Source of the DNA: a virus
Lineage: Duplodnaviria; Heunggongvirae; Uroviricota; Caudoviricetes
DNA: 22,881 nt
IMG/VR virus record: IMGVR_UViG_2734482777_000003
Reading direction: 5' to 3' (one strand)
Made by a program: the position numbers and the translations under genes. Of the stretch, positions 18,114-22,299 are shown piece after piece. Position 1 is the stretch's first letter; the number at the start of each line of letters is the position of its first letter. A model generated the notes under the pieces. It was given only the letters and a program-made list of their open reading frames with translations, had not been told where the DNA came from and ran no database searches.

Positions 18114-18188
<75 letters not shown>

Positions 18189-18191
18189 ATA

Positions 18192-18267
<76 letters not shown>

Positions 18268-18269
18268 AC

Positions 18270-18346
18270 TGGACCGCCACCGGGGACTCGAACCTCGCAC
18301 ACTCAACTTAAAGGGTTGACGCTCTTTCCTGATGAGCTAGTGGCGG
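18270..18346 (-). tRNA. tRNA-like gene with non-canonical features (anticodon loop CCUUUAA, formally UUU/Lys)
   Basis: Reverse complement reads CCGCCACTAGCTCATCAGGAAAGAGCGTCAACCCTTTAAGTTGAGTGTGCGAGGTTCGAGTCCCCGGTGGCGGTCCA. Cloverleaf is foldable but has C at position 33, a C1-G72 pair and an A-C mismatch in the T stem. May be an unusual phage tRNA or a pseudo-tRNA. Confidence 0.4.
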
Positions 18347-18347
18347 T

Positions 18348-18423
18348 TGGTGGCCCTTGCTGGATTTGAACCAGCGACCTGGCGATTATGAGTCGCTCGC
18401 TCTCACCACTGAGCTAAAGGGCC
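18348..18423 (-). tRNA. tRNA with CAU anticodon, most like tRNA-Ile2 (ileX/ileZ-like; Met cannot be excluded)
   Basis: Reverse complement reads GGCCCTTTAGCTCAGTGGTGAGAGCGAGCGACTCATAATCGCCAGGTCGCTGGTTCAAATCCAGCAAGGGCCACCA. Anticodon loop CUCAUAA; strong resemblance to E. coli ileX. Confidence 0.75.
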
Positions 18424-20741: not shown

Positions 20742-21020
20742 TTACCTCCAGATGCGTTGCTGGAATGTGCGGGACGGACGCGGTGGGCGTTCAGAGTAAG
20801 GAAGCCTGACGGAGATTATCCAGTGACGATAATCGAGGCTGAGGGCTTTCTCAATCTCGTATCCGTGTCTGCGGTAGCACTGAATTAGCCACTCGGCCTG
20901 TTCTTCAGTGCATGGGTCATGCTGGAACCAGTCAGATTTGAAAGTGCGGGAACGCCGCCCGTGCCTGCTGGCAAAGACGGCAAAATCATCAGAATTGTGT
21001 AATTTGGTATCGTGCGCCAT
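20742..21020 (-). CDS. Hypothetical protein (about 92 aa from internal ATG; the track ORF extends to 21101 via TTG)
   Basis: ORF downstream of an intrinsic terminator. The track's TTG start lies inside the terminator T-tract, so I place the start at the internal ATG (MAHDTKLHNSDDF...). No family recognised. Confidence 0.4.
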   Translation of the reverse strand: MAHDTKLHNSDDFAVFASRHGRRSRTFKSDWFQHDPCTEEQAEWLIQCYRRHGYEIEKALSLDYRHWIISVRLPYSERPPRPSRTFQQRIWR

Positions 21021-21102
21021 CGGTTGTCTCTGCTGGCGCAGCAGGTGCCAGTTGTTCAGGCTGGCGTGCGAATTGTAAACCAGAATGCCAGGAAAAAACA
21101 AA

Positions 21103-21126
21103 ACCCGCCGAAGCGGGTATGCTAAA
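21103..21126 (-). terminator. Intrinsic terminator (UUCG tetraloop hairpin plus U-run)
   Basis: Minus strand ACCCGC-UUCG-GCGGGU followed by UUUGUUUUUUCC. Confidence 0.5.
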
Positions 21127-21316
21127 ACAAACTGAAGGTAATATACTGGACTTGTAAAGGAACGAGAGAATAATTATTGGATTAAACCCTGACTCAAGCC
21201 AGATTTCATAGGCAACAACTACGGACTAATCATCACAGTCATGTTTGATAGGCTTAGTCCACATTGGGTGAGGGTTTACGGCGTTTTCACTAATAATTTA
21301 TCGTCCACACTATACA

Positions 21317-21709
21317 CTACTGCCCTGTTTTAACGAAGTTTTTAAAGGAAACAACTGCCTGATAGGGGTTTGGTTGACAGCCAAACATATTATCGCAAAA
21401 AGGCTTGATGAAAATTCTTGAGGATCCATCTTCATTTGGCATTTTACTCACTTGATAAGCGAGGAATGGACTATTTGGAGAGGGATTATAAGTGGAAATT
21501 AGCGTGTCTGTCGCCGTTTGAATTTTCCATGAGGAATTATTAGCCAACCAGAATTGCGCTCGTTTCCAATAAAAGTCACATTGCTTTTCATCATTACATG
21601 TTAGTGGCTTCATTGCTTCTGCTTTCAACGCTGGATCGACCTTTGCTGCACACCCTCCCAACATTACTGTTGCAATCATTACACCTGCGACTAAAACAAG
21701 TTTCTTCAT
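21317..21709 (-). CDS. Putative secreted lipoprotein (130 aa) in an AT-rich moron
   Basis: N-terminus MKKLVLVAGVMIATVMLGGC is a signal peptide with lipobox LGGC; Ala at +2; four further Cys. The gene and flanks are visibly more AT-rich than the surrounding phage genes. No family recognised. Confidence 0.6.
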   Translation of the reverse strand: MKKLVLVAGVMIATVMLGGCAAKVDPALKAEAMKPLTCNDEKQCDFYWKRAQFWLANNSSWKIQTATDTLISTYNPSPNSPFLAYQVSKMPNEDGSSRIFIKPFCDNMFGCQPNPYQAVVSFKNFVKTGQ

Positions 21710-21759
21710 CTCCCTGCCCCATCAATAAAAGTTCGGTTCTCTAATAACTAGAGTTAATC

Positions 21760-21783
21760 AACGGAAAAAACGCCGAAGCGGGT
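21760..21783 (-). terminator. Weak hairpin plus U6 downstream of hok
   Basis: Minus strand CCGC-UUCG-GCG followed by UUUUUU, about 70 nt after the hok stop; the stem is short. Confidence 0.3.
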
Positions 21784-21852
21784 TAAGTGCGGGTGCGTTG
21801 AGGATGCCTGACACATCAGAGGTGGCGAGGGATTTCTCCCCCGCCAGGTCTC

Positions 21853-22008
21853 TTACTCCTCAGGTTCGTAAGCTGTGAAGACAGCGACCTCCGTCTGGCC
21901 GGTTCGGATTCGTACCTCGCAGAGGTCTTTCCTCGTTACCAGTGCCGTCACAATGACGGTAATACAGATGACGATCAGGGCGACTAACATCGCCTTTTGC
22001 TGCTTCAT
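21853..22008 (-). CDS. hok: Hok/Gef-family type I toxin (51 aa membrane peptide)
   Basis: MKQQKAMLVALIVICITVIVTALVTRKDLCEVRIRTGQTEVAVFTAYEPEE is recognised as near-identical to E. coli HokD/RelF. The track ORF 21853..22065 is the same frame extended 19 codons upstream. Confidence 0.85.
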   Translation of the reverse strand: MKQQKAMLVALIVICITVIVTALVTRKDLCEVRIRTGQTEVAVFTAYEPEE

Positions 22009-22299
22009 AGCCTGCTTCTCCTTGCCTTTCGGCACGTAAGAGGCTAACCTAGATTTGCCGTTCATAGATTGAGCCTCAGATTAATGTTAAGCGTCTTGCC
22101 GGACGCGTAATGTTAACTGGGGCTTTTCTCTATCTGCCTTTTGGTGTTCATGCCTGAGACAGATAGCCTCAAGCACCCGCTGCAATTCTACTTAACTCTC
22201 CTTTTCCCGCAAACCGTTTTTATCCCCAGCGGCAAATCGAATACACCACCAGCGCCACCGCCATCGCAATTCCTACCGTTGTGAATGCTTCAGGCCAGG

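Follow-up and report, generated by a model that had tools for sequence, protein, structure and literature searches.

Several phage lipoproteins are known to exclude other phages from the host cell. Llp, a periplasmic outer-membrane lipoprotein, acts on FhuA and excludes from the receptor's periplasmic face (PMC9586334), and Rtp45 targets LptDE, likewise from inside the outer membrane (PMC12685063). The mEpimmI Lpp lipoproteins, whose genes belong to the structural cluster, discriminate by receptor type among the phages they exclude (PMC11893012). The moron was defined by Juhala and Hendrix, and Bor and Lom of lambda are precedents for lysogenic conversion by such genes (PMC3594210). Here we analysed a lipoprotein gene in a lambdoid prophage of Escherichia coli, read on the minus strand (IMG/VR record IMGVR_UViG_2734482777_000003; the whole stretch of 22,881 nucleotides (nt) is called the window). 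The 130-amino-acid (aa) protein of 21317..21709 is termed the window lipoprotein, and X stands for any member of its family in the loci of relatives. We found that the family recurs in two phage slots, one adjacent to the repressor gene cI and the other among the tail-tip genes, which together account for 13 of the 21 lineages that had sufficient flanking DNA and are new here. By analogy with the systems above, the window lipoprotein might be a receptor-independent superinfection-exclusion factor acting at the level of the envelope, a tentative reading that we favour but would not yet call probable.

The gene and its export signal were placed as follows.
21317..21709, minus strand: coding sequence (CDS) of the window lipoprotein, 130 aa, ATG start (open reading frame (ORF) listing; phrog_16082 at 2.6e-84; purifying selection)
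21650..21709, minus strand: signal peptide residues 1-19 and lipobox codons, the lipobox at 21650-21661 (direct sequence reading)
The N-terminus reads MKKLVLVAGVMIATVMLGGC and then AAKV. A hydrophobic N-terminal signal followed by a lipobox ([LVI][ASTVI][GAS]C) was read in MKKLVLVAGVMIATVMLGGC, where the lipobox spans residues L17-G18-G19-C20 and is followed by Ala at +2. Lipidation is predicted for C20, and the protein has four other cysteines, C38, C44, C105 and C111. The mature protein has 111 aa, about 12.6 kDa and a pI of about 8.6. Under the Lol rule the +2 residue decides the sorting of lipoproteins, and Ala at this position directs them to the outer membrane; thus, outer-membrane sorting is predicted for the window lipoprotein. 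An earlier account of this DNA, made from its letters alone and called the sequence-only reading below, had described a 130-aa ORF whose LGGC lipobox is followed by Ala at +2 and which contains four extra cysteines, and every one of these elements was read in the sequence. RefSeq calls the same CDS "hypothetical protein" (WP_000737636.1), and no papers mentioning this accession were found in our literature search.

Homologues of the window lipoprotein with 66-85% identity were present in Enterobacter, Pantoea, Phytobacter and Yersinia. Compared with five homologues, non-synonymous differences amounted to 0.11-0.22 per site and synonymous differences were saturated (pS, their proportion, 0.78-0.95). 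The lipoprotein gene is real and under purifying selection. A profile search of 1.84 billion representative proteins returned 1141 clusters (50% identity) at E<=0.001 and 532 at E<=1e-10. All five cysteines, that of the lipobox and the four others, were kept in at least 93 of the 94 diverse members of our alignment, which implies an oxidising periplasmic location; the near-invariant residues were the cysteines, W48, T73 and I99. No catalytic pattern of the His/Asp/Ser type was conserved in the family alignment, so that a binding role seems likelier than an enzymatic one. Of the 169 family sequences, 145 contain a lipobox; 115 of these 145 have Ala at +2 and none has Asp. Together with the lipobox of the window lipoprotein itself, this bears out the earlier claim that the gene encodes a lipoprotein.

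The architecture of the family varies. Members of 226-238 aa from the tail slot bear a C-terminal PDZ domain, P0117 is a tandem duplication of the domain, P0024 and P0079 have a Cys-rich C-terminal extension without a Pfam match, and P0065 has an N-terminal DUF4124. Damaged copies include P0012, with a C-terminal frameshift, and L067/L155, split into ORFs of 51 and 76 aa, and many database entries are N-terminally truncated, with 87 or 106 aa (P0006, P0013). When 50,697 deposited phage genomes were searched by tblastn with five diverse members, two carried a family member, both of them induced E. coli prophages in which it is annotated as hypothetical. Scanning species-representative genomes with the close-family alignment gave no confirmed relative, and a hand-made degenerate pattern gave four Burkholderiales/proteobacterial copies (three intact) and one chance match (L079). 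A chromosomal copy in Variovorax davisae (L081, 3220-3755) is apparently frameshifted into two ORFs. Judged by eye alone, its neighbourhood may contain a Fic-type gene and H-NS/MvaT-like genes, which suggests a silenced genomic island.

Genomic contexts were collected from locus look-ups, a motif scan of IMG/VR and the identification of neighbours with hidden Markov models (HMMs). Twenty-one clusters (60% identity) had enough flanking DNA: 6 contained members in the K/I/J slot, 7 contained members adjacent to a repressor and 8 lay elsewhere. In five independent lineages (L014, L103/L178, L086, L142 and L182), X was directly 3' of a CI-type repressor (helix-turn-helix plus S24), on the same strand and with gaps of 35-96 nt. 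The gap was 589 nt, with one ORF between, in L097, where X was also on the repressor's strand, and one further lineage was convergent with the repressor at 104 nt. X of L014 has a good ribosome-binding site, and no terminator lies between it and the repressor. The rexAB-type genes of lambda, just after cI, are expressed in the lysogen, and by analogy with cI-rexAB an X downstream of the repressor would be made in the lysogen too.

In the tail-tip slot the order is M, L, K (JAB plus NlpC/P60), X, I, J. This was confirmed with Pfam in L156, L101 and L150, and the same order was found in L146, L119, L137, L134, L116, L151, L161, L110, L188 and L088. The Pantoea prophages (L008, L074-L077), whose proteins are 74-85% identical to the window lipoprotein, also have X in this slot, and the cluster holding the window lipoprotein includes such Pantoea members. 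Standing beside K, I and J, X would appear to be linked to host entry. The remaining positions are likewise typical of accessory genes. A Yersinia prophage has X flanked by ParDE and SieB, and one relative adjoins an integrase and tail-fibre end. In L009 it is in the tail gene cluster, upstream of the DUF2460 and Phage_BR0599 tail genes; both flanking ORFs are without a Pfam match, and the slot is at most a possible equivalent of the HK97 gp15 moron site (PMC3594210). Taken together, the cI-adjacent and tail-tip slots and the precedents of exclusion lipoproteins make exclusion seem the reading that best accounts for the family, and we extend it to the copy in E. coli.

The same contexts bear on a second possibility, a lysogenic-conversion factor that would serve the bacterium through Bor/Iss-like serum resistance, adhesion or tolerance of envelope stress. 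The gene is a prophage moron lipoprotein in E. coli, including Shiga toxin-producing E. coli (STEC) and livestock isolates, lambda Bor and Lom set the precedent (PMC3594210), and Flpp3, the closest solved fold, is described as a Francisella virulence determinant. However, no homology to Bor/Iss or TraT was detected, and the family extends to prophage contigs with a guanine-plus-cytosine content (GC) of 0.47-0.67, to metagenomes and to soil Burkholderiales, where serum is irrelevant. Moreover, the recurring cI-adjacent and K-I-J slots indicate a phage-related role. A conversion factor is therefore unlikely in our view, and of the two roles suggested in the sequence-only reading, the genomic context favours superinfection exclusion over Bor-like serum resistance.

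The tail-tip slot also contains a variable partner. An X without a PDZ domain was followed ~20 nt later by the gene of a second lipoprotein, and PDZ-fused X had no such partner. The second lipoproteins were located at the following positions.
L150, 4195-4539: second lipoprotein
L101, 3618-3962: second lipoprotein
L110, 5416-5760: second lipoprotein
L075, 6332-6679: second lipoprotein
L074, 6374-6784: second lipoprotein
L151, 11094-11516: second lipoprotein
L161, 2176-2526: second lipoprotein
They share a conserved signal peptide, MRILIAAVAVAMLAGC, joined to a swapped mature domain of the phrog_914 type, the phrog_890 type or another type, and homology ends precisely where the signal peptide meets the mature domain. 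A comparison of L150 with L161 gave 82-87% identity for K, X, I and the J N-terminus (X 86% in nt), while the last ~800 nt of J and the mature second lipoprotein were non-homologous. Between L074 and L075 the second lipoprotein was swapped and J was mostly homologous. Two related types of J C-terminus, 86-91% identical within and 65-74% between types, were found in the four E. coli prophages that bear the window's cassette (see below), and four genomes are too few for a test of linkage between cassette and J type to decide. Although the samples are small, the conservation of X alongside swapped J C-termini and partners argues that X is not tuned to one receptor.

This observation matters for receptor masking of the Cor/Llp/Rtp45 type, in which the protein would bind the periplasmic face of one outer-membrane protein, alter its surface loops and block phages (perhaps colicins), and progeny would also be spared from waste on cell debris. 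Relatives immediately beside the host-specificity gene J would suit such a role, known blockers are encoded by receptor-binding genes or in structural clusters (PMC11893012, PMC12685063, PMC9586334), and the PDZ-fused variants could grip a periplasmic peptide of a membrane protein. Nevertheless, X is kept at 86% nt identity between L150 and L161 where the J C-terminus is non-homologous, and the slot's variable element is the second lipoprotein, not X. The E. coli cassette lies about 20 kb from J, with at least two J C-terminal types in four prophages, and X is twice the size of the known blockers, with an unrelated fold. On this mixed indirect evidence we regard masking as rather unlikely.

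The packing of the slot could be read in yet another way. Tail-slot X is on the same strand as the late tail genes and tightly packed with them between K and I, and the non-PDZ form precedes, by ~20 nt, a second lipoprotein whose mature domain is swapped. A role in the lytic cycle or a partnership might follow from this, with X helping or holding the variable second lipoprotein or taking part in late envelope remodelling. On the other hand, several lineages have X by itself beside cI, the E. coli copy also stands alone, the gene lies outside the lysis cassette, and a lipoprotein, being exported, cannot be a component of the virion. Such a role appears very improbable.

Scans of the window lipoprotein against Pfam and NCBIfam gave no match, the sole Pfam line (collagen C4, E 0.07) being noise, and the anti-phage defence models of PADLOC-DB gave 0 families at E<=1. 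It matched phrog_16082, a family without function, over its full length (2.6e-84 over 1-130 of 130), and a weak link was seen to phrog_4186, likewise without function. Distant members from the cI-adjacent and K-I slots matched phrog_16082 too. Among the candidates tried, Cor (phrog_1119) matched at E 0.0071 and covered only residues 1-44, that is, the signal peptide. For Bor/Iss (Lambda_Bor) there was no match at E<=0.1 in Pfam or PHROGs, TraT likewise showed no homology, and Llp of T5 and Rtp45 were absent from the PDB structure matches. The mEpimmI Lpp proteins had no detectable homology by tblastn of the phage collection, which leaves a functional analogy only. The 94-member family profile searched against all PDB sequences gave signal-peptide matches only.

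The structure was modelled with AlphaFold2 on the 94-sequence alignment, with a predicted local distance difference test (pLDDT) of 94.6 and a predicted template-modelling score (pTM) of 0.83; an earlier model from 12 sequences had a pLDDT of 84. In the model, a short helix and a strand are accompanied by a long helix (residues 41-58), an antiparallel sheet of four strands and, at the C-terminus, a further helix (115-128). Distant fold resemblance was found to Flpp3 (DUF3568, Francisella) and to the BamC N-domain, with template-modelling (TM) scores of 0.35-0.46 and 13-17% identity. No Pfam DUF3568 match was found at E<=0.1, and Foldseek against the BFVD viral structures returned nothing at E<=0.001. 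Eukaryotic KA1 and START/Bet v 1-like proteins scored like Flpp3 and BamC; therefore, a general helix-on-sheet fold is shared, also with these two outer-membrane lipoproteins, and homology is not demonstrated. The predicted fold by itself gives no function. The sequence-only reading had called the lipoprotein uncharacterised and had recognised in it none of the Cor, Llp and Bor types, and this agrees with the missing Pfam, NCBIfam and PADLOC matches, with a Cor match confined to the signal peptide, with no match to Bor and with no structure match to Llp or Rtp45. The profile HMM and structure-prediction searches that it had proposed lead to the unnamed phrog_16082 family and to a confident fold with distant resemblances only.

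We infer the cellular location, transcription source, exclusion function and mechanism as follows. After Sec/Lsp processing, the window lipoprotein would be held in the outer membrane's inner leaflet by its lipidated Cys20, with a compact, disulfide-stabilised alpha/beta domain of about 110 aa in the periplasm, where it would act by binding. Its gene arrived on an AT-rich cassette of ~665 base pairs (bp), which now separates hok from its terminator in a lambdoid prophage. Transcription in the lysogen would come from hok by read-through, and after induction N-antiterminated early transcription would contribute too. From the periplasmic face, the protein might then interfere with the penetration or DNA delivery of lambda-like siphophages, those with a J-type tail tip, and exclusion would be largely independent of the phage's surface receptor.

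A more specific target can be imagined. T4 Spackle (Sp) is a periplasmic inhibitor of the tail lysozyme gp5. By analogy, the family could be Spackle-like inhibitors of gpK, the C40/NlpC-P60 peptidase at the tip of incoming tails, which we consider decidedly unlikely. This idea would explain the K-adjacency, the conservation of X despite the swaps of J and partner, and the stand-alone copies by cI or hok, and the PDZ-fused forms would be a built-in variant gripping the target peptide.

A number of observations weigh against superinfection exclusion. The window lipoprotein has no sequence or close structural likeness to any known exclusion protein, and no characterised phage carries a family member. 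The slot statistics come from motif-selected IMG/VR contigs and are no unbiased census. Some copies, L080 and L081 (Variovorax) among others, are in apparently non-phage chromosomal contexts, a few of them in Burkholderiales, so the domain need not be phage-specific. Transcription of tail-operon genes is late, as would suit a function in the lytic cycle no less than one in the lysogen. Finally, as regards expression of the E. coli copy in the lysogen, no sigma-70 promoter was found in the 76-nt spacer upstream of the gene by consensus scan or by eye.

The cassette was delimited by comparison with a prophage (L002) in which the site is empty.
21119..21783, unstranded: AT-rich inserted cassette, about 665 bp (base-by-base comparison with empty site L002)
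21106..21118, unstranded: left 13-bp direct repeat CGCCGAAGCGGGT, in the intact terminator hairpin (empty-site comparison)
21771..21783, unstranded: right 13-bp direct repeat CGCCGAAGCGGGT, hok side, other arm of the hairpin truncated (empty-site comparison)
21119..21316, minus strand: 3' untranslated stretch of the cassette, 198 nt (ORF and Rfam scans)
The empty site reads AAAACCCGCCGAAGCGGGT joined directly to TAAGTGCGGG, whereas the window reads AAAACCCGCCGAAGCGGGT, then ATGCTAAAAC, 665 bp in all up to GGAAAAAACGCCGAAGCGGGT, and then TAAGTGCGGG. The repeat comprises the loop and one arm of the hairpin that forms the hok terminator, and the exact junction is ambiguous inside its 13 bp. In L002 and many other E. 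coli prophages the hok terminator directly abuts the next gene. Other cargo was found at the same junction between the hok terminator and phrog_1212, namely rem in L003 (646-897), an unannotated segment of ~460 bp in L004 (about 580-1040) and an IS481-family transposase in H25 (NZ_CP027103.1), and these different inserts mark the junction as a recombination hot spot for cargo.

The GC was 0.402 for the gene, 0.399 for the cassette and 0.523 for the whole window; it stayed at 0.39-0.43 across 21050-21800 and was 0.55-0.57 in the genes just downstream. The sequence-only reading had called the gene a separately acquired moron, more AT-rich than its flanking genes and spanning 21131-21760. The composition was as claimed (0.40 against 0.52 in the window and 0.55-0.57 in the adjacent genes), and separate acquisition is upheld by the empty site in L002, the other DNA in L003 and L004 and the AT-rich insert of ~665 bp with its 13-bp repeat. 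The span took in the ORF, the 198-nt 3' stretch and some upstream spacer, while the full insert is slightly larger, 21119-21783. Three marks of a moron were found: DNA inserted between genes that adjoin each other in related phages (empty site, ~665 bp difference), a differing base composition (0.40 vs 0.52 and 0.55-0.57 as above) and a terminator of its own (hairpin plus T-run, 21093-21118; a copy of, or the original, hok terminator). For a fourth mark, an own promoter active in the lysogen, no sigma-70-like site was detected in the 76-nt spacer.

The full cassette segment was present in 252 of 5426 complete E. coli genomes (4.6%). Across 55 IMG/VR E. coli prophage contigs the cassette was 98.6-99.1% identical and the flanking genes 83 to 99.7%; with ~99% identity within mosaic flanks, the cassette therefore travels among prophages as a unit. 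A cassette variant in L063-L065, L068-L073, L035 and L055 matches over no more than the first 515 of 667 nt; its 3' end differs and is about 84 nt shorter, and its flanks are more divergent. No small RNA or Rfam match and no conserved ORF were found in the 198-nt 3' stretch, which is not homologous to the flanks of the Pantoea homologues (blastn matches ORF positions only). No remnants of partner lipoproteins (phrog_914/890) were found in the window.

Two further features concern transcription.
21093..21118, minus strand: intrinsic terminator ACCCGCTTCGGCGGGT plus T-run, 3' of the lipoprotein gene (terminator scan, folding, empty-site comparison)
21710..21785, minus strand: upstream spacer, 76 nt, with G-rich ribosome-binding region GGGGCAGGGAG (consensus scan and inspection)
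The terminator at 21093-21118, which in cassette-free prophages is the hok terminator, now ends the lipoprotein transcript. This distal terminator folds at -13.1 kcal/mol (z -3.3) and the hok terminator of the empty site at -14.8. The hok-proximal copy of the hairpin (21765-21785) has partly lost its stem and gives -6 kcal/mol (z -0.1), with a different structure and no terminator fold. Because this hairpin is degenerate, read-through from hok is plausible, and that transcripts starting at hok reach the lipoprotein gene would be the simplest plausible explanation. The hok transcripts probably run on for about 670 nt through the cassette, and this might also change the 3'-end-dependent regulation of hok mRNA. 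Lying between hok and its terminator, the cassette suggests a simple route for a moron, namely borrowing the constitutive transcript of a host-killing gene.

That no promoter was detected is also what might be expected of a passenger that currently has no function in E. coli and has spread through recombination at the repeat of the terminator. There are frameshifted or split copies as well (P0012; L067/L155), and the cassette is carried by only 4.6% of E. coli genomes. However, purifying selection across genera is strong, and most E. coli copies are intact and nearly identical, with all cysteines and the lipobox conserved. Such a passenger is extremely improbable.

The gene is flanked by two conserved neighbours.
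21853..22178, minus strand: upstream neighbour, hok/sok type I toxin-antitoxin (Pfam HOK_GEF 1.5e-23; Rfam sok 112 bits; RefSeq hokD)
20742..21020, minus strand: downstream neighbour, small conserved nin-region gene phrog_1212, 92 aa as annotated (profile and RefSeq annotation)
The hok/sok locus consists of the hokD CDS (21853-22008) and the sok RNA match (22003-22178). It is complete and lies in the prophage early region, its 70-aa ORF being the mok-hok reading frame; by contrast, hokD of K-12 Qin is truncated and corresponds to just a part of this locus (rows H54-H58). The phrog_1212 gene is labelled 'toxin to Rem' in ON470583.1 and 'hypothetical' in RefSeq. Its open frame runs on as far as a TTG at 21101, which would overlap the terminator and is unlikely to be the true start. 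The gene order of the window is DUF551, hok/sok, the lipoprotein ORF, phrog_1212, DUF968, RusA and Q, and then four tRNAs, lysis genes, terminase, an HK97-type head and the tail genes H-M-L-K-I. The induced prophage vB_EcoS-689R5 (GenBank) is nearly collinear with the window. The four tRNA genes between Q and the lysis genes (18117-18423, minus strand) are annotated as three, Met, Thr and Gly, in the collinear phage record. Two cassette prophages, of E. coli OkiPb01676 and S51 (L194, L195), are integrated beside potB/potA, and their last genes are J, Lom and those of the tail fibres. A third, in 2012C-4227, is found by ydfJ, and in it the type III secretion system effector gene nleC comes after the tail fibres.

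Prophage morons for envelope proteins decide which phages infect a strain, and they thus bear on host range in phage therapy, on the spread of Shiga toxin (Stx) prophages and others in E. coli and on competition between phages. A prophage moron with an envelope lipoprotein is already known, while the protein family, the fold variant, the PDZ fusions and the two slots are undescribed. The family is large (more than 1100 clusters at 50% identity) and has no name, Pfam model or studied member, yet it occupies two telling positions in temperate phages. If the window lipoprotein is indeed an exclusion factor, it would represent a new structural family, about twice the size of Cor, Llp and Rtp45, with natural PDZ fusions and a variable partner lipoprotein. 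Specialists would be surprised only if the mechanism proved new.

Compared with the known systems, the window lipoprotein is most readily set beside Cor (phi80/N15/HK022/T1) and T5 Llp, which are also phage lipoproteins with an outer-membrane-type signal and a disulfide-containing periplasmic domain. Their genes are accessory, as is that of the window lipoprotein, whose relatives lie beside tail or host-range genes. However, Cor and Llp have about 6-8 kDa and are directed at FhuA, whereas the window lipoprotein, ~111 aa when mature, is non-homologous to them. Rtp45 is likewise a periplasmic outer-membrane lipoprotein and a model for blocking entry from inside, but it has about 6 kDa and is unrelated in sequence and fold. 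The moron logic of HK97 gp15 and lambda RexAB, with presence or absence between conserved neighbours, an own composition and an own terminator, is shared (PMC3594210), and the relatives' slots recall both, tail gene clusters for gp15 and the position just after the repressor for rexAB. Nevertheless, gp15, a member of the YebO family, is a small protein of the inner membrane, and Rex is cytoplasmic or in the inner membrane, while the window protein is a predicted lipoprotein of unrelated fold; unlike these morons, its gene is without a detected promoter of its own. Spackle resembles the family as a small exported phage protein, and relatives in the family immediately follow the gene for K, the C40/NlpC-P60 peptidase of the tail tip; Sp shows no homology and is not a lipoprotein, and inhibition of K by X would be pure conjecture. 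Flpp3 and the BamC N-domain differ in the cysteine pattern, which is specific to the window lipoprotein's family. Finally, lambda Bor/Iss is a prophage moron lipoprotein of about 100 aa too, but Bor lies by the lysis genes, and the family of the window lipoprotein reaches environmental bacteria.

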